NCBI GenBank assembly: GCA_037131105.1
Contig: JBAXRQ010000001.1
Span: 322,039-386,038 of the forward strand
Origin: a bacterium
GTDB taxonomy: Bacteria > Patescibacteriota > UBA1384 > CAILIB01
DNA: 64,000 nt
Direction: 5' to 3'
How positions within the stretch are numbered: position 1 is the stretch's first letter; the number at the start of each line of letters is the position of its first letter. Below, one piece after another: positions 11,996 through 63,414 of the stretch. A model generated the notes under the pieces. The model was given only the letters and a program-made list of their open reading frames with translations. It was not told where the DNA came from and ran no database searches. A program made the position numbers and the translations under genes.

Positions 11996-12080
11996 GGCTG
12001 CCCTCAAAAACCATTGAGACGTATTCCGAAGGAATACTGTTAGACAGGCTCCCTTGAGTCGAAGGTTTTTGAGGGCAGCC
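11996..12080. repeat. perfect 17-bp inverted repeat (ggctgccctcaaaaacc / ggtttttgagggcagcc) with ~50-nt loop containing an inner 7-bp hairpin, immediately 3' of uvrB
   Basis: Read directly from the sequence. The right arm abuts the uvrB stop codon. Confidence 0.6.
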
Positions 12081-15000
12081 TATGACTCGAGTTCTCGGAT
12101 TTGGTCTCTGAGCTTAGCTGCCCCCTCATAATCCAAGTGTAATGCGGCCTGGGCCATCTTGTCGCGCAGCTCTTCCAGATAGAACTTCTTCTCCATGGGC
12201 TTCAGCCGGTTGTACATGGCCTTCTCCTCGGCAACAGTAAGAGTCTCGTGGCTAGGTAAGGCGATAGTAATTGGCTTGTTCAGCAGCTGAGGCACGATTC
12301 CGTGCTCCACGTTATAAGCCTTCTGAATGGTGCGGCGGCGGTCGGTCTCATCGATAGCTCGACGCATGGAGCCGGTGATGTTGTTGGCGTACATGATGAC
12401 TCGTCCCTGGGGGTGGCGGGCGGCCCGGCCGATGGTCTGAATAAGTGAGGTCTCTGAGCGCAGGAAGCCTTCCTTGTCAGCGTCCAGTATGGCGATAAGG
12501 CTCACTTCGGGTAGATCCAGACCCTCGCGCAGCAGGTTGATACCCACCAGTACGTCATAGGTGCCTAGGCGCAGGTCCTGAAGGATCTGGGAGCGGTCCA
12601 AGGTCTTTACGTCGGAGTGCAGGTACTGGACCTTGATGTTTCGGTCCTGCAGGTACTCGGTGATGTCCTCGGCCATGCGCTTGGTGAGGGTAGTGACCAG
12701 GGTGCGCTCGTGTCGCTCGATGCGTATTGCGATTTCCTTGAGAAGGTCGTCTATCTGCCCGTCGATGGGCCGTATCTCGATCTCCGGGTCGGGGATGCCA
12801 GTAGGACGAATTAATAGCTGGGCTACCAGATCCACCTTCTTATCTTTTTCCAGACGGGTCTCCTGGGTCTCTACTTTTACCTTCTCCAGTTCGTACTTGC
12901 CAGGGGTAGCCGACACATAGACTGCCTGGCCGCGGCGCTCCTCAAACTCAGCAAAGGTCAGGGGGCGGTTGTCTTTGGCACCCTTCAGGCGGAAACCATA
13001 GTCCACCAGGGTATTCTTGCGGGCCTGGTCGCCGTTGTACATGCCGCCGATCTGAGGGATGGTCATATGTGACTCATCCACAAACAGTAGGAAATCGTCC
13101 GGGAAATAGTCCAACAGTACCGACGGGGGAGTGCCGGGCGCGCGCCGGTCAAAGTAGCGCGAATAGTTCTCGATGCCGGAGCAAGATCCGGTCTCGCGAA
13201 TCATTTCCAGGTCGAAGGTGACCCGCTGCTTCAGCCTTTGGGCTTCTAGCAGCTTGCCGTGGGCTTCGAAGTCAGCCACCTCGGCTCGCATGTCCCGTTC
13301 AATCTCGGCTAGGATCTCTGGGCGGGCGGTCTCTTCGGTCAGGAAGTGCTTGGCGGGAAATATCTCCACCTCGTCCACGCTCTCCAGTGACTTCTGGGTG
13401 ATGGGATCTATGAGATCAATACTCTCCACCTCGTCGCCAAACTGTACTATCCTGATCTGGTAATCCTCATAAGCCGGAAAGATGGTGATGGTGTCACCCT
13501 GCACCCGGTAGCGGCCGCGGGAGAGATCAATGTCATTTCGCTCATACTGCACATCGGCCAGCTTTCGGGTGAACTGGCGCTGAGGCAGCTGCTCGCCCTT
13601 CTTTACCGTGATATTGGCAAGGCGATAAACGTCAGGAGAGCCCAGACCGTAGATGCAGGAGACCGATGCAACGATGATGGTGTCCCGACGGGTAAGTATG
13701 GAGTGGGTGGAGGCGTGCCGGAACTTCTCGATCTCCTCGTTAATGGCCGAGTCCTTCTCGATGTAGGTGTCGGTCATCGGGATGTAGGCCTCCGGCTGGT
13801 AGTAGTCGTAGTAGGAGACGAAGTACTGGACGGCATTATCCGGGAAGAATTCCCTGAATTCGGCAAAGAGCTGGGCGGCCAGGGTCTTGTTGTGGGCCAT
13901 GACAAGGGTTGGGCGCTGCAGCCGCTCGATGGCATTAGCCATGATGAAGGTATTGTGAACAAAGAGCCCTCCCCGTCCTGTCATAAAGGTCTCAAGTCCA
14001 GGTACGCTAAAATCATACACATACGGGTGTAAAGGTTTTGTCGGTTCGCAAGATGCTATTGGGGACCAGTGAAGCCTGGTTAGTCCCAAGAGTTCTTCGT
14101 CCTTAACGTCTAGAGAGGCGCATATACGCTCAAAAAGTGTCCGAGAAGGATTTCGAATGCCTACTTCGATAGCTGAGATCATGGTGCGGGTGCATCCTGC
14201 TTTTAGGGCGACATCGCGTTGGAGGAGTCCTGCTTCCTGTCGTAATGTCAGGAGTCGCTTTCCTACTCCATACACCAGGTCAACATTGGTGTTCCCTGAC
14301 TTAATCTGCCTGAGAAGTGCGGCTGATTTTCTCGGGCTAATAAAGCCTATCTTGTATGCGAAAGCTCTAAGGTTGTCCTGCCCGCTAATGGTTATCAGAT
14401 GATACATACCACGAGTTCCATCTGGTTTTAGCTTGCTTACCGGCCTGAACCGTGCCCATATGCCAAACCGTAACAGTGCCTCGGCTATATCACTGGCTAG
14501 TTCCGGGCTAAGGGTTACGGCGGTTACGGCCCCCTTTTCAACTCCACCATCTCCCTCAAAGTAGGCAGAAAGAAGCTTGGCTAGGAACTTATTGGAAAAA
14601 GAGGGCCATAAGCTCGGTAGGCGCTTGTTATGGGCATGGGTGCCCATGTGGCTAGATAGTAGGTCTCTCCAAGAACGAATCCCGATTCTATAGTCACCTG
14701 TTTCTTGGAGCCCGAACGGGATGTTCAGCTCCTTGAGGCATCTCCCTACCTCGGCATGGACATAAGGGTCACGAACAGTAATCTGGGAGCCTCCTATAGA
14801 ACAATGGCCCTCAGCGATATACTGGCCAAAAATAGTGGCAACGGCTGGCGTAAGCGGAAGTGTCACAGGCTCGCTATGGATCTTGCCCTTCAGGCTAATC
14901 TCAAAAGGTTTAACAATGTTGCAGGCCAGAAGCTGCCTGGCAGCGGAGAGGTGTACTCCTTCATTAAAGCGGACAACCCGGTATGCTTTGGCATTAGGAT

Positions 15001-15631
15001 GTTCATAATGCCCTGCCAATATGTGGGCAAGGATAGGCTGAGAACGTACTGCCCCACGGAGCTGCACTCCTACGTTTTCAGAGGTGATCTCGTCAATGAG
15101 GTTCAGTGCGGTTAAGGGTCGCGGGGGTTCTGGCAGTAAAGCTGGTACTGGCAGCGCATCAGTTTCTCTGACTTGGCTTCCTTCAACAAGGCAAAGATGT
15201 CCGTCACGTAGTACCCAGACGCTATGGTCACCAGTTACGGTCACGGTTCTACCGCAGCTGGTTGTCAGCCTAAATAACTGGTCAGGAGAGGCGTGGCGGC
15301 TAAGTACGCTGATTTGCTCCCAACTGGTTTTACCAGTCTTAACATCCCAGGACATAACTTCCCATGTACGAGATGGGGCAACTGCGGCTGATTCGTTTTG
15401 TCGGAAGCCTTTTAGGTGTTGGTCGATAAGAAGTCCGATTGGTCCACGATAGGGACGTCCGTCGATACGCACTGTAACTGGTTCATCCCAGGCTACGCTC
15501 TTTCCCGTTCCTGTGGCTCCTAGCAGTACCTGAGACTGGGCTCCGGCCTCGACATTATTCACTATCTGTTCGATAGCGCTAGGTTGGTCGCCGTCGGGTG
15601 TGAAAGGAGCCTTTAGGTTAAAGCGCTTCAT
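12080..15631 (-). CDS. uvrB: excinuclease ABC subunit B containing a 516-aa intein (1183-aa precursor; mature UvrB ~667 aa)
   Basis: N-extein ...LLGATGTGK is interrupted after the Walker-A lysine. C-extein resumes [56 protein letters not shown]... and continues through the UvrB helicase motifs to a UvrC-binding C-terminus. AGGAGG RBS. Confidence 0.9.
13952..15499 (-). mobile_element. UvrB intein (Ser1 ... His-Asn/Thr+1) carrying a LAGLIDADG homing endonuclease and an embedded XRE-type HTH
   Basis: Begins [14 protein letters not shown]... and ends ...GGLFVHN followed by +1 Thr. LAGLIDADG-like blocks [12 protein letters not shown] and [12 protein letters not shown]. Cro/C1-type HTH ...[36 protein letters not shown]. 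Confidence 0.8.
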
Positions 15632-37584: not shown

Positions 37585-37952
37585 GGCGCTTCCAACCATC
37601 CAAGGCAGTCGCTTTTCGGGAAACCGACGAGAGGAAAGTCCGGGCAGGCAACAGCGACGGTAGTCGGGAAATCCGACCGGGCGTGAGCCCCGAGACAGTC
37701 GCAACAGAAAGCAAACCGCCAGCGGCCCGAAAGGGTGCGGGCAAGGGTGAAACTGTGTGGTAAGAGCACACACGGCCGCCAGGTGACTGGCGCCGCGGTA
37801 AACCTTACCGGCCTGCAAGGTGGGTTGGGCTGGACGGCATAACTCAGCTGGAGGTGTCGAACGGATCCCACCGCGTAGATAGATGGCTGCCGCGTCGCAT
37901 TACCGAGAGGTGGCGGCGTACAGAACCCGGCTTATTAAGATGATTGGAAGCA
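37585..37952 (+). ncRNA. rnpB: RNase P RNA, bacterial type A
   Basis: Hallmark P4 sequence GAGGAAAGTCCGGGC near the 5' end and ACAGAACCCGGCTTA at the 3' end. P1 pairing between cttccaaccatc (37589-37600) and gatgattggaag (37939-37950). Ends approximate (+/-10 nt). Confidence 0.85.
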
Positions 37953-43562: not shown

Positions 43563-43637
43563 TGGGGAGTGGCCAAGTGGTAAGGCAGTGCCCTTTGAAG
43601 GCATGTATCGAAGGTTCGAATCCTTCCTCCCCAGCCA
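43563..43637 (+). tRNA. tRNA-Gln (anticodon TTG), CCA encoded
   Basis: TGGGGAGTGGCCAAGTGGTAAGGCAGTGCCCTTTGAAGGCATGTATCGAAGGTTCGAATCCTTCCTCCCCAGCCA. U1:A72 pair, D-loop GCCAAGYGGUAAGGC and T-arm GGTTCGAATCC closely match bacterial tRNA-Gln. Anticodon loop CT-TTG-AA. Confidence 0.85.
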
Positions 43638-46495: not shown

Positions 46496-46687
46496 ATGAC
46501 CAAAATACAGATTCTTCGTCGACAGAAGGCAGTAGCGGCAGCGGTCGGTTCGGTACGCGCTGAAGGCCTTAAGACAACAATAAAAACCCAGAAGCAGCTA
46601 AAAGAATACGCTGAGGGAAAGATTACTATTGCAAAACTACGCAGAGTTACTATTGATGATATAAAGGCAAAACAAAAAAAGAAGTAA
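46496..46687 (+). CDS. VbhA-like Fic antitoxin (63 aa) with inhibitory (S/T)xxxE(G/N) motif
   Basis: ...AAAVGSVRAEGLKTT... contains S-V-R-A-E-G, matching the alpha-inh motif of class I Fic antitoxins. Directly precedes the Fic gene (10-nt gap). AT-rich. Confidence 0.55.
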   Translation: MTKIQILRRQKAVAAAVGSVRAEGLKTTIKTQKQLKEYAEGKITIAKLRRVTIDDIKAKQKKK

Positions 46688-46697
46688 CCAAGAGCGT

Positions 46698-47330
46698 ATG
46701 CCATACGATGTCGATAATGATCCCTATATCGACAAGACAACAGGCATTCTTCGTAATCTCTTGGGTATAAAGACCCAGATAGTATTGGACGATGCTGAAG
46801 CGCAAATTACTGCAATAGAAATTACTGCCCTCACGAGTGGGGAGGGCTACCCGTATGATGAACCTTCGGTAGACTCATTGAAGGACATTCATAAGCAGCT
46901 TTTCAGGTATATTTACGTATGGGCTGGGTCGGTGAGAACTGTAGAACTAAGTAAGGGCGACACAAGCTTTGCTCGAGCTGTACATATTGAAAAGGCTATG
47001 GATGGTATTTTTACAGAACTAGAAAAAGAGGGCTATCTTGCAGGACTTAGTACTAATCTATTTGTGGAAAGGCTTGCTCACTACTATGGAGAGTTGATTG
47101 CACTTCATCCTTTTCGTGAAGGTAATGGCAGGACTATCCGTACCTTTTTGGCTATCTTAGCTGATAATAATGGGTGGCATATTGCTTGGGATGAAATGAA
47201 TTCGGAAGAAAATATTTCCGCATGTATTGCGGCGTACAAAGGAGATGAGACCCCATTGCGTAATATGTTGGAGAAGATTATCGCCCCCGTTGATGTATTT
47301 TGGGGCCGTGATCCCTATGAATTCATTTAG
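46698..47330 (+). CDS. Fic family protein (AMPylation/NMPylation toxin)
   Basis: Canonical Fic motif HPFREGNGRTIR in ...LIALHPFREGNGRTIRTFLAILA... Confidence 0.85.
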   Translation: MPYDVDNDPYIDKTTGILRNLLGIKTQIVLDDAEAQITAIEITALTSGEGYPYDEPSVDSLKDIHKQLFRYIYVWAGSVRTVELSKGDTSFARAVHIEKAMDGIFTELEKEGYLAGLSTNLFVERLAHYYGELIALHPFREGNGRTIRTFLAILADNNGWHIAWDEMNSEENISACIAAYKGDETPLRNMLEKIIAPVDVFWGRDPYEFI

Positions 47331-47394
47331 CCAATGCGGCTCATTTCCCCCAGCACAGCATTAGTCGGCGTATGTGCTACTCGATCTTTGTATC

Positions 47395-47570
47395 CCGGCA
47401 GGGGGAACATCACAAACAGATTGTGAAGGAAATGGATGAGTATCCCTAGATAGATGTCCCGGCTGAGCCACCTGATAAGGTCGAACACCGGTCCCGCCCG
47501 AAACCCCCCATAGACACTGGTATTCCAGGTTCGTCGCCAGCGGCCTATCAGAGGGTCTACATGTGAGCTT
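47395..47570 (-). pseudogene. remnant of the 3' half of a CPBP (CAAX/Abi) intramembrane-protease gene (decayed copy of the gene at 52432-52947)
   Basis: ~175 bp with ~85-90% identity to 52507-52672 (e.g. atgagtatccctagatagatgtccc[g/c]gctgagccacctgataagg[t/c]cgaacaccggtcccgcccgaaaccc). No intact ORF. Confidence 0.6.
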
Positions 47571-47751
47571 GGAAGTTCTCACACTGGAACAAGAAGAACC
47601 GCACCCAGGAAATGGACATAGCCCGGCGCTACCTGGCCGACACCAAGGATTACCTGTAATGCCAGAACCTGATATATCTAGCTTCTAGAGCATATTTCTG
47701 ATATAGAAAGAACACGGGTATCATATATACCTGTATTTCTAGGAGGTTTGA

Positions 47752-48699
47752 ATGAGGAGATCAGTTGGTAGAGGCGCCCTAATTATGGCGCTCGTACTCT
47801 GTACGGCTGTGGCTCAGGCCCAGACGGTCCCGCCGGAAACGCTGTTTCTGGGAAGGGCGAATGACTTGGGGAATACCACCTATGTGGACAATATCTCCCA
47901 GGGTCGGGATGACAATCCGGCCCGACTGTTTGATCGCGGGCGCCAGGCCGGCATCAAGGGTGGACGTATCGCCGACCGGGTGCTTCCCGACCTGCAGATG
48001 CTCTATGCCCAGGGCACCAGCCCCGTGTCGAAGCGCTGGATGGTTCAGCTGGCGGGTACTCGCCTGACCGGAAGCGGACCCTTCGGTCCCGGCACCCTTT
48101 CCTACCGGGACAAGGATGCCGGACTGCAGGTAGCCTACCGGGCAGGGAACCGACTTGATTTCGGCGTGGGAGTGGCAGATATCGAGACCGTCTCTCAGAT
48201 CAAAGTCGGCGGCATCGGCGGCTTTACCCTTACTAGCCAGCCACGCGGGCTAGGCGGACGGGTGGGAGCGCGCTACCGGCTCTCTCCCCGGATTGAGCTG
48301 GAGGGTACCTATGACCACTACGGCGATGCGGAAAGGACGGTGCCGCTGGGGGCCTTTGCTCCGCTTGGTGAGAGTACGGCGGTCTTCACCACCCAGAAGA
48401 TGGTGGTCGGCGGCAGTTACCGCGCCAAGGGCATCGAGGCAGCCATGTTCTATACCAAGCTGGACATAGATCAGCGGGGAGGCCCCTTCTCGCTGGGAAA
48501 GAACTTCCTTAATGGTGGCGTCAAGGCCACCCATGGACCATTCTACCTGGCGGCCGGGATGTATGACGGCTACGGAAGTGTGGGAGCTGGCATGGCACGG
48601 GGAAAGACCAGTCTTACCGTGGCGGCTAGCAACCGTAACAAGGCCTTCTCGCCCACTGCGAAGACGGCCTATTACGCCGAAGCAGTGAGAGGGTTCTAA
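47752..48699 (+). CDS. outer-membrane β-barrel protein (signal peptide; C-terminal ...YYAEAVRGF)
   Basis: Cleavable signal ALIMALVLCTAVAQAQT. Alternating hydrophobic β-strand pattern. Terminal Phe with an aromatic at -3, the classic OMP C-terminal signature. AGGAGG RBS. Confidence 0.55.
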   Translation: MRRSVGRGALIMALVLCTAVAQAQTVPPETLFLGRANDLGNTTYVDNISQGRDDNPARLFDRGRQAGIKGGRIADRVLPDLQMLYAQGTSPVSKRWMVQLAGTRLTGSGPFGPGTLSYRDKDAGLQVAYRAGNRLDFGVGVADIETVSQIKVGGIGGFTLTSQPRGLGGRVGARYRLSPRIELEGTYDHYGDAERTVPLGAFAPLGESTAVFTTQKMVVGGSYRAKGIEAAMFYTKLDIDQRGGPFSLGKNFLNGGVKATHGPFYLAAGMYDGYGSVGAGMARGKTSLTVAASNRNKAFSPTAKTAYYAEAVRGF

Positions 48700-48726
48700 A
48701 GGAAACCTTGCAATTTGTCTATTTGA

Positions 48727-48760
48727 CAAGGACCGCACTCTCGCGAGAGTGCGGTCCTTG
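48727..48760. terminator. bidirectional terminator: perfect palindrome caaggaccgcactctcgcgagagtgcggtccttg
   Basis: 15-bp stem between the convergent OMP and histidine-kinase genes. Confidence 0.65.
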
Positions 48761-48802
48761 TCGTGATGTCCCTGTCCAACTGGTAGATGGTTCAGAGACT
48801 AG

Positions 48803-50854
48803 TTATGGTTCTTCCAGAATAGGGATTTCGATCACTACTGCCGTTAGGTAGGGGGCGGGCAGTAGGATGGGCACCTTATTCGGGAATGTGCAGTAGGGCG
48901 GCGAGGTGCGGGTTCCATCACGGAACCCGATGATCCCGATGGTGCCGTAGTGCGCGCGGACATTCTTATCGACGAGAGACTGTCCGAGACCGGTGCCTGG
49001 CTTGCCATCGTCGATATCCTCCTGATTTCTCCTGTAGTCCATGCCGAACATTCCGCTGGCAAAGTCCTCCACCATACCGCGGCGCTCTTCAGATCCACCC
49101 CGTGCCCTGCCTTCGTCCATCACCATGATGCTAAACGTTTTCTCATCAGAGGATAACGAGAGAAGGAGGTTTCCGTCACTGTATTTGCCGCCATTTGACA
49201 GGAGGTTCATCAGGACGGCATGGATCCGTATGGCCTCGATTGCCACTGATGCGGTAGGATCTGGGCAGTCAATGAGGATCTGCCTCGGCCAGGGCCTCAG
49301 GCACCCGCTGGTAGAGAAGAGCTTGGCGGTTCCCCGTTGGATCTTGTCTATGAGCAGAGAAATGGGAACGCCGGACCTTTGCACTTGCAGGGGCTTGTCA
49401 GTAGAGCTTTCAGACTCCAGCTTCAATACGGCAAGCTGGTCGCACATATCCTGGGCCACCCCATGGGCATCCTTCAGAAACTCGAGGGCATCCTCGGGCA
49501 ACCCATTCCCGTAAAGATCTATGACCGTTTGAATGTACAGCATGATTACGCCGGCGGGATTAACCAGGTCATGGTTTATCTCCTTCATCAAACGGTCCTT
49601 CATGTCGATAAGCTCATCCCGAACTTTGACCTGAAGTTCGGCTTTCTCACGATCGAGCTCCGCTCGCTGCCGTTTGAGCTGCTCCTCTCGGTGCTTAATG
49701 TTTGAATCGGTGGCCATAGTGAGCTGGAGTCGGAAGATGAGTTCCGTTTCCTTTTCCCGGTTTGACCATCCCTCCATCCCCGCGATAAGCACTCGCCATA
49801 TTCGTGAGTACAGGGCGATCTCCGTGTAGTCGAACCTGCTGACATGGTAGGGGCCATCGAAAATCTGATCCCTCCAAATGATGGGTCGTTCAGCTGGAAA
49901 GTCGGCGGTCACCTTGAGGGCTACCCATCCTTGATTTGACCCATTGACGTCACGAGGTGTGAGGTAAAAGGGCGTCGCGCCGAAAAACTCGCGGGCTTCT
50001 AGCATGACTGGTGCCCGGTGGTGGTATCGCGCCTCAAGTAGACATACCTCGGCTATCTTCTGCCCTTTGCAGACTACGCTGCCGTCATCCAGTACTTCTG
50101 CCTCGTGCCCGTGGTGGGCAAGAAACTCAAGTAGCTGCCATTGGAAGACCAGGTCGGTGACCTTGGCCATATTCCGCTTGTAAAGCTTGGCGATTATGGC
50201 GAAGTGGCCGTTGGTATAGGCAATGGAAAACCAGTCGTCGATGCTGTCGATCCAAGGTAGGTACTTATGGATGAGATAGCATGAGTTCTTATGGCGGCGC
50301 AGGTACCAGCCCTCCTTGGTCCGGTTGAATCCGGGGATAAGGCTGACGCCCAGCTCCATAGCGGCGTTGATCGGCCCCTTTATGAGGGAGGCGGTGAAAA
50401 ACTGGCCGCCCTTTACCCAGCTGACCCAGGAATTCATGGCGCCGAAGCTGGGGGTCTCGGGAGCGGCCGCACCGAGTCGGAAGCAGATCTCATTAATGTC
50501 GACCTTAAGCCTCGCTGCGATGTTACGTGCTACCTGCTTGAAGTCATTCAGGGGCACCCAATGGTCGGGTTCTTCCTCTATCTCATCAAGGGTCACCTCA
50601 AGTCCGTCCACAAGCTGCGGGATATCGCCTTCGGTGTGGGTCTCATTGACGTACCCCCGTAGCAAGTTCAATATATTTCTGCAGCTTACGTTCCAGTCGG
50701 CATCGCTATCCTCCTTGAACTCACTAACGAATTCGTTTATGAGCCGGTTTCGTGCCAGCAGTATCTGGACAGGGTTTGTTACGTCCTGCATGTCGGCTCC
50801 GAAGGCGTCCAGCCTTCGCAGCCATTCTTCGTACAGTTCATGTCTCGTTTTCAA
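48803..50854 (-). CDS. cytoplasmic histidine-kinase-like protein: ~400-aa uncharacterised N-terminal domain + coiled coil + HisKA/HATPase_c
   Basis: H-box ...KEINHDLVNPAGV..., N-box LMNLLSNGGKYSDG, G2 box GTGLGQSLV. No TM segments. No response regulator nearby. Confidence 0.65.
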   Translation of the reverse strand: MKTRHELYEEWLRRLDAFGADMQDVTNPVQILLARNRLINEFVSEFKEDSDADWNVSCRNILNLLRGYVNETHTEGDIPQLVDGLEVTLDEIEEEPDHWVPLNDFKQVARNIAARLKVDINEICFRLGAAAPETPSFGAMNSWVSWVKGGQFFTASLIKGPINAAMELGVSLIPGFNRTKEGWYLRRHKNSCYLIHKYLPWIDSIDDWFSIAYTNGHFAIIAKLYKRNMAKVTDLVFQWQLLEFLAHHGHEAEVLDDGSVVCKGQKIAEVCLLEARYHHRAPVMLEAREFFGATPFYLTPRDVNGSNQGWVALKVTADFPAERPIIWRDQIFDGPYHVSRFDYTEIALYSRIWRVLIAGMEGWSNREKETELIFRLQLTMATDSNIKHREEQLKRQRAELDREKAELQVKVRDELIDMKDRLMKEINHDLVNPAGVIMLYIQTVIDLYGNGLPEDALEFLKDAHGVAQDMCDQLAVLKLESESSTDKPLQVQRSGVPISLLIDKIQRGTAKLFSTSGCLRPWPRQILIDCPDPTASVAIEAIRIHAVLMNLLSNGGKYSDGNLLLSLSSDEKTFSIMVMDEGRARGGSEERRGMVEDFASGMFGMDYRRNQEDIDDGKPGTGLGQSLVDKNVRAHYGTIGIIGFRDGTRTSPPYCTFPNKVPILLPAPYLTAVVIEIPILEEP

Positions 50855-50911
50855 TGTGCCTCCCCCCTTTTCCTCTAGGTTATACCAGATAAGAGAGGAT
50901 CTGGATAGTTC

Positions 50912-52381
50912 CTAGCGCTCCTTTTCGTGGGAGAAGGCAAGAAGGGGGATCTCGTGCCGTTTGGCTATCTTCTTGAGTTCTGGCTTGGGATTTACGGCGT
51001 AGGGGTATTTCACCTTTGTGAGGAGCACGGCGTCACCGAAACTGTCACCGTAGGCGAATGAGTCCTCCAGGGAGGTGTCGTTCAGGTCGAGGTACTCCTG
51101 GGCATAATGGAGCTTTCCCTTGCGATAGGCGATGGGCCCTTCGATGTGGCCGGTGAGCATGCCGTCCTTTTTCTCAGTGCGTGTGCCGTAGGCGGCGTCC
51201 ACGTCGAAGTACTTGGCCCAGGGACCAAGAAATACGTCGAAGATCTCACTTACCAGTACCACCCGGTGGCCATGCTGCTGATGTGACCTGATGATGTCAG
51301 CCGCTTCCTGGTAGATCCGGGGGACGATACGCTCCTCAAACACCGTCTGGGCGATGAGGGCCATCTCGGTGGCATTGCGATCCTTGAGAAGTCCGGCGAT
51401 ACGGGGGATGATCTCGAGGTGGTTCAGGGTCCCTTTCTTTTCCTGGCGGTACCAGGAGAGTACCGAGGGTACCAGGTGGAGTGGGAGTAGTCCCTTGCGG
51501 AAGAGGTGCTTCACGATAACCACCTCGGTGTAGCCGGGAAAGAGGGTCCTGTCGATGTCAAAGAAGGCGGTTATGACTTTGGCTTGCGGCGGCCTGTAGA
51601 CGGTTGCCTCGCTAGTTCTCATTGAAATGGGGAGGTGATGGGCTATCAGATTCTCCAGCTGACGCGTCTTCTGGGTGATAATGTCCACAGTCAGGTCGAT
51701 GCCCTCCTCGGACGGCAAGCGGTAGGGCTTGTAGAGCGTGATAGTGATATGGGCAGGCGTAAATATCTTCTTCTTGCTATCGAACAGCTTGCTGCTGCCT
51801 TCAATGGTGGCCGGTACGATAGGGGCGCCGGTATTCATAGCCAGCCGGATGGCTCCCCAATGGAAGGGAAGGATCTTAGGATGGCGCTCCACGTGTCCCT
51901 CAGGAAAGATGAGGACGTTCTTGCCAGCCCACAACGCCTCGGACAGCAGGGTGTACACCTCTTCCCGCCGGTGGGCCTGCTTGTACATGGCCTGCTCCTC
52001 AAAGCTGCGAGATACGTCAATGCAGCCGCACTTCTTGAGCCAGAAAGAGAACAGTCCTGGGAAATAGGGGAAGGGCGCCGTCAGGGCGACCAGCGGCAGG
52101 GCGTGGATGAAGTTGAAGAATATGCCGTCGAAGAACCCCTGGTGGTTGCAGGCGAAGATGACCGGCTCGTCCGGGATATGCTCGGTGCCTTTTATCGTCA
52201 GTTTTATGCCGAGGAGTACCTGGATCAGGTGGAGGACGAATTTCCCGACCCGGTACCACTGCCCCTCTTTGTTTTTGCTCAGGAAGGCTAGGCACCATCC
52301 GATCGGTAGAAAAGACAACAGCACAATTCCTATGATCAAAAGGGCATAGACGGTGTAGCACAGCTGGATAATTCTCTTCAT
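50912..52381 (-). CDS. fusion protein: 1-acyl-sn-glycerol-3-phosphate acyltransferase (PlsC/LPLAT) domain + HAD-superfamily (subfamily IB-like) phosphatase domain
   Basis: N-terminal TM; acyltransferase motifs NHQGFFD (HxxxxD) and IFPEG. Then the HAD motif I FFDIDRTL, with downstream ...LVSEIFDVFL... and a C-terminal GDSFGD (motif IV). Internal ATG at 52381 (MKRIIQL...). Confidence 0.7.
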   Translation of the reverse strand: MKRIIQLCYTVYALLIIGIVLLSFLPIGWCLAFLSKNKEGQWYRVGKFVLHLIQVLLGIKLTIKGTEHIPDEPVIFACNHQGFFDGIFFNFIHALPLVALTAPFPYFPGLFSFWLKKCGCIDVSRSFEEQAMYKQAHRREEVYTLLSEALWAGKNVLIFPEGHVERHPKILPFHWGAIRLAMNTGAPIVPATIEGSSKLFDSKKKIFTPAHITITLYKPYRLPSEEGIDLTVDIITQKTRQLENLIAHHLPISMRTSEATVYRPPQAKVITAFFDIDRTLFPGYTEVVIVKHLFRKGLLPLHLVPSVLSWYRQEKKGTLNHLEIIPRIAGLLKDRNATEMALIAQTVFEERIVPRIYQEAADIIRSHQQHGHRVVLVSEIFDVFLGPWAKYFDVDAAYGTRTEKKDGMLTGHIEGPIAYRKGKLHYAQEYLDLNDTSLEDSFAYGDSFGDAVLLTKVKYPYAVNPKPELKKIAKRHEIPLLAFSHEKER

Positions 52382-52431
52382 GCACCCATTATATAGTAGT
52401 ATGCCGCAAGAGGAAAAAGAGAAGGGCTGCC

Positions 52432-52947
52432 TTACCTCTCCGACTGCTTTTCGCGTAGCTCGGCATTGGTGGGCGTGTGGGCCATCCGGTCCTTGAAACC
52501 AGGTAGTGGGAACATGACAAAAAGATTGTGTAAGAAGTGAATGAGTATCCCTAGATAGATGTCCCCGCTGAGCCACCTGATAAGGCCGAACACCGGTCCC
52601 GCCCGAAACCCGGCATAGGTACTGGTCTTCCAGGCACGCCTCCAGCCCGCCCACCAGAGGGTCTGCATGTGAGCAAGGCCGAAGATAAGAGATGACCCTA
52701 TCAGGGCGTAGAGCTGGCTGTGCCAGAGGTAGATGATCACTCCGTACAGTAGTCCACGAAAAATGAGCTCCTCACCGAAGGCCGCTTTGAGCGACGAGTT
52801 GTAGAAGATGGTGATGCCGCGAATCCAGGCCAGTGGTAAAAAAAGCAGCCAGATCCCCAGTACCGCTAGCGGGTAATATAAGGAAAAGGGATGGGCGGGA
52901 TTGAGGCCGAGATCGGTGAGAAGGATGGTGACAGTGATGGCAGGGAG
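52432..52947 (-). pseudogene. CPBP-family (CAAX protease / Abi) intramembrane metalloprotease. Motif 1 (EELIFRG) lies upstream of the first ATG/GTG/TTG, and the frame is closed by an in-frame TAA 172 codons before the stop; probably disrupted or started non-canonically
   Basis: In-frame translation upstream of the track ORF gives LPAITVTILLTDLGLNPAHPFSLYYPLAVLGIWLLFLPLAWIRGITIFYNSSLKAAFGEELIFRGLLYGVIIYLW..., followed by FGLAH (motif 2) and HFLHN (motif 3). TAA at 52948-52950. A 25-aa in-frame ORF lies just upstream of the TAA. Confidence 0.55.
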
Positions 52948-60886: not shown

Positions 60887-62332
60887 ATGTTCGAACAGGC
60901 CTTCAAACGCATCGACGACGTGCTCCGTAAGGATGCTGGTGCCTCCAGTGAGCTTGACTATGTTGAGCAGACCTCCTGGATCTTATTCCTCAAATATCTG
61001 GACGACTTGGAGAAGGACAAGTCTACCGAGGCAGCTTTGGCCGGCAAGGACTACAAGGCCATCATCGCCCCCGAATACCGCTGGGAAGTCTGGGCGGCTC
61101 CCAAGACTGCAGACGGCAAGCTTGACCACCATAAGGCGCTTTCCGGTGATGACCTGCGGGACTTCGTCGACCTGCAGCTTTTCCCGTACCTAAAGAAGTT
61201 CAAGAGCGAGGCCGAGGGCCCGGATACCATCGAGTACAAGATCGGGGAGATCTTTAGCGAGATCAAGAACAAGATCCAGAGCGGCTACACCCTGCGGGAG
61301 ATTCTGGACGTGGTGGACGACATGCGGTTCCGCTCCCAGGCCGAGAAGCACGAGCTTTCCAGCCTCTACGAGGGCAAGATCAAGAACATGGGCAACGCCG
61401 GCAGGAACGGCGGTGAGTACTATACGCCCCGGCCTTTGATCAAGACCATTGTTAAAGTGGTGGATCCCAAGATTGGTGACACTATCTATGACGGAGCCGT
61501 CGGCTCGGCTGGCTTCTTGGTGGAGGCCTACGAATACCTCAGGAGCAGCCGCAAGCTCTCTACCGAGGATGTCCAGACCCTGCAGAAGAAGACCTTCTAC
61601 GGCAAGGAGAAGAAGTCGCTGGCCTATATCATTGGGATCATGAACATGATTTTGCACGGCATCGAGGCTCCCAATATCCTGCATACCAATACCCTGGCCG
61701 AGAATCTGGCCGACATCCAGGAGAAGGACCGTTACGATGTAGTGCTGGCCAATCCGCCGTTTGGCGGCAAGGAGCGGACCGAGGTGCAGCAGAACTTCCC
61801 GATCAAGACGGGGGAGACTGCATTTCTTTTCCTGCAGCACTTCATCAAGATCATGAAGGCAGGCGGCAAGGGCGGCATCGTCATCAAGAACACCTTTCTT
61901 TCAAATACTGACAATGCCTCGGTTTCGCTGCGCAAGTATCTATTGGAAGGTTGTAACCTGCATACGGTGCTGGATCTGCCTGGTGGTGCATTCGTGGGGG
62001 CAGGTGTGAAGACGGTCGTACTGTTCTTTGAGAAAGGGGCACCTACCAAGAAGATCTGGTATTACCAGCTGAACCCGGGAAGAAACCTAGGGAAGACGAA
62101 TCCGCTGAATGAGAAGGACTTGACGGAGTTTGTGGAGTTACAGAAGACGAAGGGGGATAGTGAGAATTCGTGGAGTGTGGGAGTGAGGGATCTTAACAGG
62201 GAGACCTGGGATCTGTCAGTGAGGAACCAAGATGCACTCAAGGGAGTCGCCATACGAGACCCAGAGATGATTATAAAAGAGATAAGGATTCTGGATGAAA
62301 AAATCAGGGCTACTCTTGAGAGTATTATATGA
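60887..62332 (+). CDS. hsdM: type I restriction-modification system DNA methyltransferase subunit M
   Basis: N6-adenine MTase motifs: motif I in ...DPKIGDTIYDGAVGSAGFL..., motif IV NPPFG (VLANPPFGGKE). HsdM N-terminal domain. Confidence 0.9.
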   Translation: MFEQAFKRIDDVLRKDAGASSELDYVEQTSWILFLKYLDDLEKDKSTEAALAGKDYKAIIAPEYRWEVWAAPKTADGKLDHHKALSGDDLRDFVDLQLFPYLKKFKSEAEGPDTIEYKIGEIFSEIKNKIQSGYTLREILDVVDDMRFRSQAEKHELSSLYEGKIKNMGNAGRNGGEYYTPRPLIKTIVKVVDPKIGDTIYDGAVGSAGFLVEAYEYLRSSRKLSTEDVQTLQKKTFYGKEKKSLAYIIGIMNMILHGIEAPNILHTNTLAENLADIQEKDRYDVVLANPPFGGKERTEVQQNFPIKTGETAFLFLQHFIKIMKAGGKGGIVIKNTFLSNTDNASVSLRKYLLEGCNLHTVLDLPGGAFVGAGVKTVVLFFEKGAPTKKIWYYQLNPGRNLGKTNPLNEKDLTEFVELQKTKGDSENSWSVGVRDLNRETWDLSVRNQDALKGVAIRDPEMIIKEIRILDEKIRATLESII

Positions 62333-63414
62333 GTAAAGATGAAATAACAACCCAAACTCTTAAGGAGGGGGTGGCAAAGACTTCTACAATTAAACTAGGC
62401 AAAACGCCCGAGACTCGCATTACGTTTGAGGCACTAATCCATGAGAAGGGAGTGTCAGGCAAAATAATAAAGTACAAAAAAGATCGAAAAAGTGATTGGG
62501 ATAACCTCCAGAAAAGTGACTTTAGTAGTCATGCGCTGGATGTAATGGAGAAAGTGGAAATCCCAGTTTCTACCGATGAATTGTTAAAATTAATTACTGA
62601 AATTCAACTTAGATATAGAATCGCTGAAGGAGGAGTTAAGTCGGGTATACATTCATATATACCAGTCGAAAAAGACAGCTTTGTGCTTATTGATAATGAG
62701 AACATCAAGCAAATATTGGAGAGTGTCTTAATAAAAGGCTACTCAGATGATTTTTGGCAGTTGCTTTCCGCCTCTGAGCCAGACTTGGCAAATAGACTAT
62801 CGGCGGGTCAACTGCAACTTCAAAGGGAAAAAATTGTAAAAGATTTAGAGCGGCGTTTACTTTTAAGGTTTTCAGAAACAAACGGTAATGACTCGTGGCA
62901 AAGATGGATTCATGCGAATAACTGGTTATTTGGAATCAATTATCAAAAGCCTATCGAAAAAGAAAAAATAAATATTTCCGGTGTTATGCCAGACTTTCTT
63001 TTTCCAACAGTGGATGGGTTCATCGACATTCTGGAAATTAAACTTCCAGAAGATGAGGTGATTTCCTCAGATGGTAGCCATCAGGGTGCTTGGAAATGGA
63101 CGGCGGCGAGCAATACAGCGATTGGCCAGGTTGTAAACTATCTTTCTGAGATAGATCGTATGAGTTCTGAAATAGAAAACAATATTCGGAGAAAATACGA
63201 GCTGGAAGTTTCTTGCTTGAAGCCCCGAGCACACATTCTAATAGGAAACTCTCAGGATTGGAAAATGGAAAAAAAAGAGGGCTTAAGAAAGCTGAATCAT
63301 TCACTCCACGGAATAGAGGTAATAACATATTTCGATCTTATCCAGCGCGGCAAGAGTTTTTCAAAAAGCCCGGTTGCTGGTGTTCGAACAGATATTGATA
63401 ATTTGCTCTCCTAA
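62329..63414 (+). CDS. DUF4263 (Shedu/SduA-like) PD-(D/E)xK nuclease-family protein inserted between hsdM and hsdS
   Basis: AT-rich gene overlapping the hsdM stop by 4 nt. C-terminal nuclease core ...GVMPDFLFPTVDGFIDILEIKLPEDEV... (D ... D-x(n)-E-I-K), as in Shedu C-terminal domains. Confidence 0.55.
   Translation: MSKDEITTQTLKEGVAKTSTIKLGKTPETRITFEALIHEKGVSGKIIKYKKDRKSDWDNLQKSDFSSHALDVMEKVEIPVSTDELLKLITEIQLRYRIAEGGVKSGIHSYIPVEKDSFVLIDNENIKQILESVLIKGYSDDFWQLLSASEPDLANRLSAGQLQLQREKIVKDLERRLLLRFSETNGNDSWQRWIHANNWLFGINYQKPIEKEKINISGVMPDFLFPTVDGFIDILEIKLPEDEVISSDGSHQGAWKWTAASNTAIGQVVNYLSEIDRMSSEIENNIRRKYELEVSCLKPRAHILIGNSQDWKMEKKEGLRKLNHSLHGIEVITYFDLIQRGKSFSKSPVAGVRTDIDNLLS

Follow-up and report, generated by a model that had tools for sequence, protein, structure and literature searches.

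A truncated CPBP protease gene copy in direct repeat with a full-length one in a Patescibacteriota contig

The two CPBP gene ends

The analysed stretch (the window, 64 kb of contig JBAXRQ010000001.1 from a bacterium of the Patescibacteriota) carries two related gene ends in direct orientation, which bracket a segment of 4.9 kb. Within this bracket lie genes for an outer-membrane-protein (OMP)-like β-barrel, for a histidine-kinase-like protein and for a fusion of a PlsC acyltransferase with a HAD-IB hydrolase (PlsC-HAD), and a VbhA/Fic cassette adjoins it on the left. Both gene ends are on the minus strand and both are the 3' ends of a short (~165 amino acids, aa) CPBP/Rce1-like intramembrane protease gene, the right one part of a long open frame and the left one a truncated and disabled remnant.

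Repeat finding and blastn placed the two copies at 47344-47568 and 52449-52674 in the same orientation, with 185 of 226 nucleotides (nt) identical (82%), a single gap of 1 nt and an E value of 2e-60. The longest perfect blocks within the repeat measure 25, 25 and 19 nt; they lie in its interior, at the conserved GFRAGPVF and GDIYLGIL motifs, while the edges of the repeat are its least similar parts. At the protein level the match continues to a stop at the equivalent position, TAA 47327-47329 in the left copy and TAA 52432-52434 in the right one. Both junctions were present in five assemblies made with three pipelines, and an assembly artefact is ruled out because the independent contigs from four other samples were 99.98-100% identical across both of them; all the available contigs that carry these genes represent one strain. 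Given the E value and this agreement, we grant practically no probability to chance similarity or an assembly artefact as the origin of the repeat.

The right copy (52432-52938, minus strand), recognised by its Pfam match and its motifs, is an open frame of 168 codons (52435-52938), whose 3' 45% (52449-52674, minus strand) is the portion repeated on the left. It matched Pfam PF02517 (Rce1-like) with 49.8 bits (cut-off 22.4; E 4.4e-13) and contains the catalytic motifs EExxxR, FxxxH and HxxxN as GEELIFRG, FGLAHM and HFLHN, in columns that are invariant in 14 family members. A database search returned 13 relatives, most of them of 160-172 aa, and the frame is therefore full length for a short CPBP family. 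The frame opens with ATC (52936-52938) at the position of the ATG in L017, its closest homologue; a Shine-Dalgarno-like sequence is present 10 nt upstream of this position in L017 and ~12 nt upstream of it in the window, and no ATG, GTG or TTG occurs from the upstream stop to V67 (codon 67). The first canonical start is GTG 52740, which would give a 102-aa product without EExxxR, and gene callers either omit the frame or call this GTG-start fragment. As read from the sequence, the frame lacks the canonical start that an expressible gene would have, and either both CPBP copies are compromised or the right-copy gene uses a rare start codon. Compared with known short CPBP/glutamic-type proteases (PF02517; NCBIfam MrtJ, MrtS and Mrt_core), the right copy is alike in the three motifs and in its length of ~165 aa, but it scores far under the cut-offs of the MrtJ, MrtS and Mrt_core models (25 vs 75-130 bits), and it differs from the short Mrt-type enzymes also in that no C-terminal sorting-signal partner was identified and in its missing canonical start codon.

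The left copy (47327-47568, minus strand), delimited by tblastn and by its lesions, is a pseudogene relic that retains the final ~75 codons of a short CPBP gene. With the right copy as query, tblastn gave 85% aa identity over 65 residues (E 1.7e-33). The 5' break of the relic lies just behind the codons for AHM in the FxxxH motif, and from it a spacer (47569-47751), non-homologous by sequence comparison, extends to the start of the OMP-like gene. Three in-frame stops (TAG 47557-47559, TGA 47548-47550 and TAG 47545-47547) and a frameshift (a 1-nt deletion near 47542-47544) all fall in its first 12 codons, inside the family-invariant WWAGW stretch; beyond them 66 codons are open to TAA 47327-47329, and this stop and the TAG that ends the convergent Fic gene overlap. 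Family-invariant residues are also changed, from G to R in SGDIYLG, from G to D in FGL and from E to V in ELR. With EExxxR absent, the three stops, the frameshift and no Pfam match, the left copy does not encode a complete domain, and neither its 5' half nor any further CPBP fragment was found in the 64-kb window, where these two stretches are the only CPBP-like ones.

The 66 codons open to the native stop, in which the differences from the right copy are mostly synonymous, would fit a stump that is still functional, either as a stretch of 53-66 codons encoding a small membrane peptide or as a silent recombination cassette for the right copy. We regard this as very unlikely, because family-invariant residues are altered in the stump, it has no Pfam match and is left uncalled by gene callers in every assembly, there is no room for it among the NCBI locus tags, and recombination in direct orientation would delete PlsC-HAD.

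An earlier note on this stretch, made from the letters alone, had described a direct repeat of ~175 bp with ~85-90% identity, its right copy in a near-full CPBP gene and its left copy a remnant without an open reading frame directly after the Fic module. The repeat is real and somewhat longer than proposed (226 nt, 82%), and the pairwise alignment of both intervals that the note had called for revealed more than a short chance similarity; over the intervals that it gave, a MAFFT alignment had a mean column identity of 90%. Both descriptions of the copies also held, the right one being full length for its family and the left one being truncated, interrupted by stops and a frameshift, and joined to the Fic gene by overlapping stop codons.

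Divergence of the copies and a probable history

Between the left and the right copy, 13, 10 and 29 differences fall at codon positions 1, 2 and 3, respectively, and the Nei-Gojobori method, applied to 63-69 in-frame codons, gave a synonymous divergence (dS) of 0.84-0.86, a non-synonymous divergence (dN) of 0.09-0.16 and a dN/dS of 0.11-0.19. From the third-position excess, the dS of 0.85 and the low dN/dS it follows that most of the divergence arose while both copies encoded constrained proteins. The copies are each other's closest relatives (81% at the nt level, 84% at the aa level), the next homologue, L017, having 72% and 67% nt identity. Being mutually nearest and yet long diverged, they are therefore either old paralogues in the lineage or alleles from two related lineages. 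In addition, lesions specific to the stump are few, which suggests that the left copy was inactivated much more recently than the two copies split.

These values bear directly on the main idea of the earlier note, a recent duplication in which the event itself copied ~200 nt of the CPBP gene, so that the repeats would be young. The direct orientation and the shared reading frame of the copies agree with such an event, but 18% of the nucleotides differ, with the strong third-position excess, the dS of 0.85 and the dN/dS of 0.11-0.19 given above, and this pattern contradicts it because in a copy that had never been functional the differences would be spread evenly over codon positions 1, 2 and 3. 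We consider a recent duplication extremely unlikely on this account. The same dS and dN/dS speak against the proposal that one event duplicated or split the CPBP gene while it delivered the three intervening genes.

We think it probable, instead, that the left interval is what remains of a second CPBP gene, long diverged and now dead, whose 5' part was lost by deletion or rearrangement, that the block between the copies is resident and that the FicTA cassette arrived separately. According to this reading, a second gene for a short CPBP protease (a glutamic-type intramembrane protease) and the right copy would be sisters, whether as old paralogues or as alleles that stem from two related lineages, which diverged for a long time as working protein-coding genes. 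Later, a deletion or rearrangement would have removed the 5' 55% of the left gene; the other end of this event would now lie upstream of the OMP-like gene, and the stump would then have gained its three stops, its frameshift and its changes at invariant residues. The foreign VbhA/Fic cassette would have landed separately, next to the relic's undamaged 3' end, and the 4.9 kb that separate the copies would not be cargo but ordinary resident DNA. Homology, disabling lesions, the pattern over codon positions, composition and the missing mobile-element genes are observations at the locus; the order of these events and the deletion mechanism are what we infer.

The bracketed genes and the VbhA/Fic cassette

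The first of the bracketed genes (47752-52381 in all) is the OMP-like one (47752-48699, plus strand), whose product is, according to AlphaFold and Foldseek, a 315-aa secreted β-barrel with a FadL/TodX/OmpG-like fold. The AlphaFold model built from a 12-sequence alignment reached a predicted local distance difference test score (pLDDT) of 88.9 and a predicted TM-score (pTM) of 0.81 with 14-15 strands, a single-sequence model being unusable (pLDDT 31.8). Foldseek comparison of the protein with the PDB gave an E value of 1.9e-9 for FadL and a probability of 1.00 to FadL, TodX and OmpG, with TM-scores of 0.55-0.64. The protein has a signal-like start, MRRSVGRGALIMALVLCTAVAQAQ, and a C-terminal end ...VRGF, and it is predicted to combine a closed antiparallel barrel with the signal peptide and the C-terminal aromatic residue of outer-membrane barrels. 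It had no sequence match in Pfam or NCBIfam and its family is very rare, as an exhaustive search of 1.84e9 representatives found 13 homologues at E<1e-3, the nearest with 43% identity; a word-indexed search gave only the protein itself. A foreign origin of this gene was considered and rejected, since its higher GC content comes from second codon positions (GC2, 0.52) and its value at third positions (GC3, 0.70) is normal.

The OMP-like gene is convergent with the kinase-like gene, and between the two the sequence contains a perfect palindrome of 38 nt, GACAAGGACCGCACTCTCGCGAGAGTGCGGTCCTTGTC (48725-48762), which is likely a bidirectional terminator. One Logan contig terminates within this palindrome. 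The histidine-kinase-like protein (48803-50854, minus strand; 683 aa) was identified by its Pfam HATPase_c match, NCBIfam kinase models match its residues 360-640, and no response regulator gene was found adjacent to it or nearby in the window. The third gene (50912-52381, minus strand) encodes the PlsC-HAD fusion of 489 aa, assigned through Pfam PF01553 and PF12710 and NCBIfam TIGR01490 and identical to NCBI protein MEI6477741.1. Its only known relative is in L015 (57% aa identity), and L015 shares at most the PlsC-HAD/kinase pair with the window. The N-terminus of the gene product encoded downstream of PlsC-HAD in L015 weakly matches that of the kinase-like protein (29% over 56 aa, with an E value of 2e-5 from a single pairwise comparison), which hints that the adjacency of the two genes is probably old and inherited and not recent cargo. 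Just upstream of PlsC-HAD, where the window has the CPBP gene, L015 has a stand-alone response regulator (the region concerned is L015 5642-7819).

On the left side of the bracket, Pfam matches define a VbhA antitoxin gene (46496-46687; PF18495, 37.6 bits) and a Fic toxin gene (46698-47330; PF02661, 61.4 bits), both on the plus strand (46496-47330 together) and 10 nt apart with VbhA upstream. The pair has the make-up of a FicTA module of the VbhA-VbhT type, and its closest plasmid relatives are FicTA modules with 42% aa identity. The NCBIfam VbhT and Fic models match the Fic protein below their curated cut-offs (VbhT E 4e-47), in the case of VbhT because the protein here consists of the Fic domain only. 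The Fic gene is convergent with the left relic and abuts it. In the two closest CPBP homologues, L017 and L053 (72-73% identity), the 3' end of the CPBP gene is likewise adjoined, there by a convergent gene of the GIY-YIG nuclease family that abuts or overlaps it (L017 650-904; L053 397-762).

Composition sets the cassette apart. GC3 was 0.61-0.78 for genes of the window and 0.6-0.78 for the genome; it was 0.70 for both the OMP-like gene and the right copy, 0.67 for the kinase-like gene, 0.76 for PlsC-HAD and 0.61 for the left relic, but 0.36-0.39 for VbhA/Fic. By this measure the cassette is the only foreign-looking piece in the bracket and its flank, and the bracketed genes look host-like. 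Furthermore, no integrase, transposase, phage or conjugation gene was found in or beside the bracket among the called genes and Pfam matches within 10 kb.

The labels that the earlier note had attached to the bracketed genes were borne out: the model and the Foldseek matches support an OMP β-barrel, the HATPase_c match without an adjacent response regulator an orphan kinase-like protein, and Pfam and NCBIfam the PlsC-HAD fusion. Its suggestion that the three genes were delivered as cargo, in turn, found no support, given their host-like GC3 (0.67-0.76), the lack of integrase and transposase genes and the PlsC-HAD/kinase adjacency probably shared with L015. As for the alternative that the event had delivered the Fic cassette, the cassette is indeed compositionally foreign, but it did not cause the 5' truncation of the left copy, because its position is beyond the bracket, next to the 3' end of the relic, which is intact.

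Elsewhere in the window, the UvrB gene (12080-15631, minus strand; 1183 aa) contains an intein with LAGLIDADG homing-endonuclease and HTH_3 domains (Pfam). A Shedu-type defence gene with SduA_N and SduA_C domains (60887-63414, plus strand), clearly foreign with its GC3 of 0.37, comes immediately after a type I restriction HsdM gene, the last 4 nt of which it overlaps. The only RNA genes found in the window are a bacterial class A RNase P RNA (37593-37950, plus strand) and tRNA-Gln(TTG) (43563-43637, plus strand); a tRNA-linked island was rejected as an explanation of the bracket, this tRNA being 3.7 kb off and without an integrase.

Insertion, known systems and meaning of the locus

The geometry of the locus, with a full gene at one end, a C-terminal fragment at the other and both in direct orientation, is exactly that expected if a segment from a related donor, with its own CPBP 3' end followed by PlsC-HAD, the kinase-like gene and the OMP-like gene, had entered a single resident CPBP gene. 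An integrase or homology-facilitated illegitimate recombination would have fused the incoming end in frame to the resident 5' part, and the displaced resident 3' end would be the left relic. Such an insertion would also account for homology that stops near the stop codon on one side and, on the other, breaks sharply within the gene; two alleles from different species would equally be expected to show a dS of 0.85, and icd/icdC/e14 provides a precedent (PMC13626634). The response regulator that precedes PlsC-HAD in L015 is a further point in its favour, because it means that the junction of the CPBP gene with PlsC-HAD is not ancient. We nevertheless judge an insertion with replacement of the 3' end to be unlikely, since the bracket has no mobile-element gene in or beside it, its genes have host-like GC3, and PlsC-HAD and the kinase-like gene were probably already paired before L015 split off. 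Neither was an identical att-like core found at the edges of the repeat, a signature that is missing because the identical blocks sit at conserved protein motifs and not at those edges. In addition, the right copy shows no sign of being a chimera and was rejected as one, its N-terminal and C-terminal parts ranking the same homologues nearest.

Three points weigh against the relic of a second resident gene as well. The CPBP gene was found single in nine other contexts with unrelated neighbourhoods, and no other sampled member of the family occurs in two copies; the dN/dS estimate comes from about 65 codons only; and the kinase match in L015 is weak. Moreover, paralogy followed by deletion and an insertion that replaced the 3' end cannot be told apart without the genome of a sister species, and none was found in GTDB representatives or JGI metagenomes, where this lineage is barely sampled. 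A search of genome contigs with PlsC-HAD had no matches, a contig search with the CPBP alignment retrieved only one Saccharimonadales metagenome-assembled genome (40% identity), and the JGI metagenome search gave 36 loci, none of them syntenic. Seven CPBP homologues whose gene surroundings were inspected likewise had unrelated neighbours.

The copies could also be a substrate for recombination. Given the requirements of RecA, homologous recombination should be rare between copies that are 82% identical and share no perfect block above 25 nt, and a deletion between the repeats, possible in principle, should be rare for the same reason; it would remove PlsC-HAD. No recombined junction between the repeats was seen in the available contigs, which are of one strain.

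Among known systems, the locus most directly recalls E. coli K-12, where icd and the C-terminal pseudogene icdC flank the cryptic prophage e14 (PMC13626634, citing Hill et al. 1989). In both cases a block is flanked on one side by a complete gene and on the other by a C-terminal piece of that gene in direct orientation, and recombination between the copies would delete the block and yield a chimeric gene. e14 differs in being a prophage, excised on SOS induction and equipped with its own site-specific recombination system, whereas the present locus has no integrase or phage gene, native composition, copies that diverge by 18%, no core at the edges and no excision product seen. Features of the e14/icd type such as a recombinase inside or beside the block, an identical att core at the edges of the repeat and foreign bracketed DNA are therefore absent. 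Paralogue pairs have also been reported to collapse by deletion into chimeras, as cpsG/manB did in the Lenski long-term lines (PMC13626634). The two CPBP copies resemble that pair in that related coding sequences lie several kb from each other in direct orientation and form a potential deletion substrate, but one partner is here already a dead fragment, the longest perfect match is 25 nt with 82% identity overall, and a deletion of this kind would also remove a PlsC-type acyltransferase. Lastly, one homologous anchor within the gene and one illegitimate end would leave a displaced fragment such as the left copy. This would be the outcome of homology-facilitated illegitimate recombination, which de Vries and Wackernagel are said to have described in 2002 for the uptake of foreign DNA; it is a mechanism and not a family of elements, and the donor here would need to be a relative that is compositionally indistinguishable from the host.

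On balance, neither a recent duplication nor a mobile element has left its footprint here; the feature is ordinary gene decay of a well-known kind, and it matters little beyond annotation. The left interval, which the NCBI record appears to leave unannotated, should be annotated as a CPBP pseudogene fragment, and the annotation of the right copy should note that the canonical start codon is missing. The change of ATG to ATC in the right copy suggests relaxing selection on CPBP function in this bacterium, which has been poorly sampled and is known from metagenomes only, and in which a foreign FicTA cassette now sits beside decaying DNA. As a speculation to which we attach a low probability, the 3' end of the CPBP gene could be an integrase-free recombination target at which related uncultured bacteria swap chromosomal blocks, the left relic being the scar of an allele that came with cargo. 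If this were true, each incoming block would bring its own replacement CPBP 3' end and leave the old one behind, and sister genomes, if found, could show at this locus whether gene blocks are exchanged by homology-anchored recombination.

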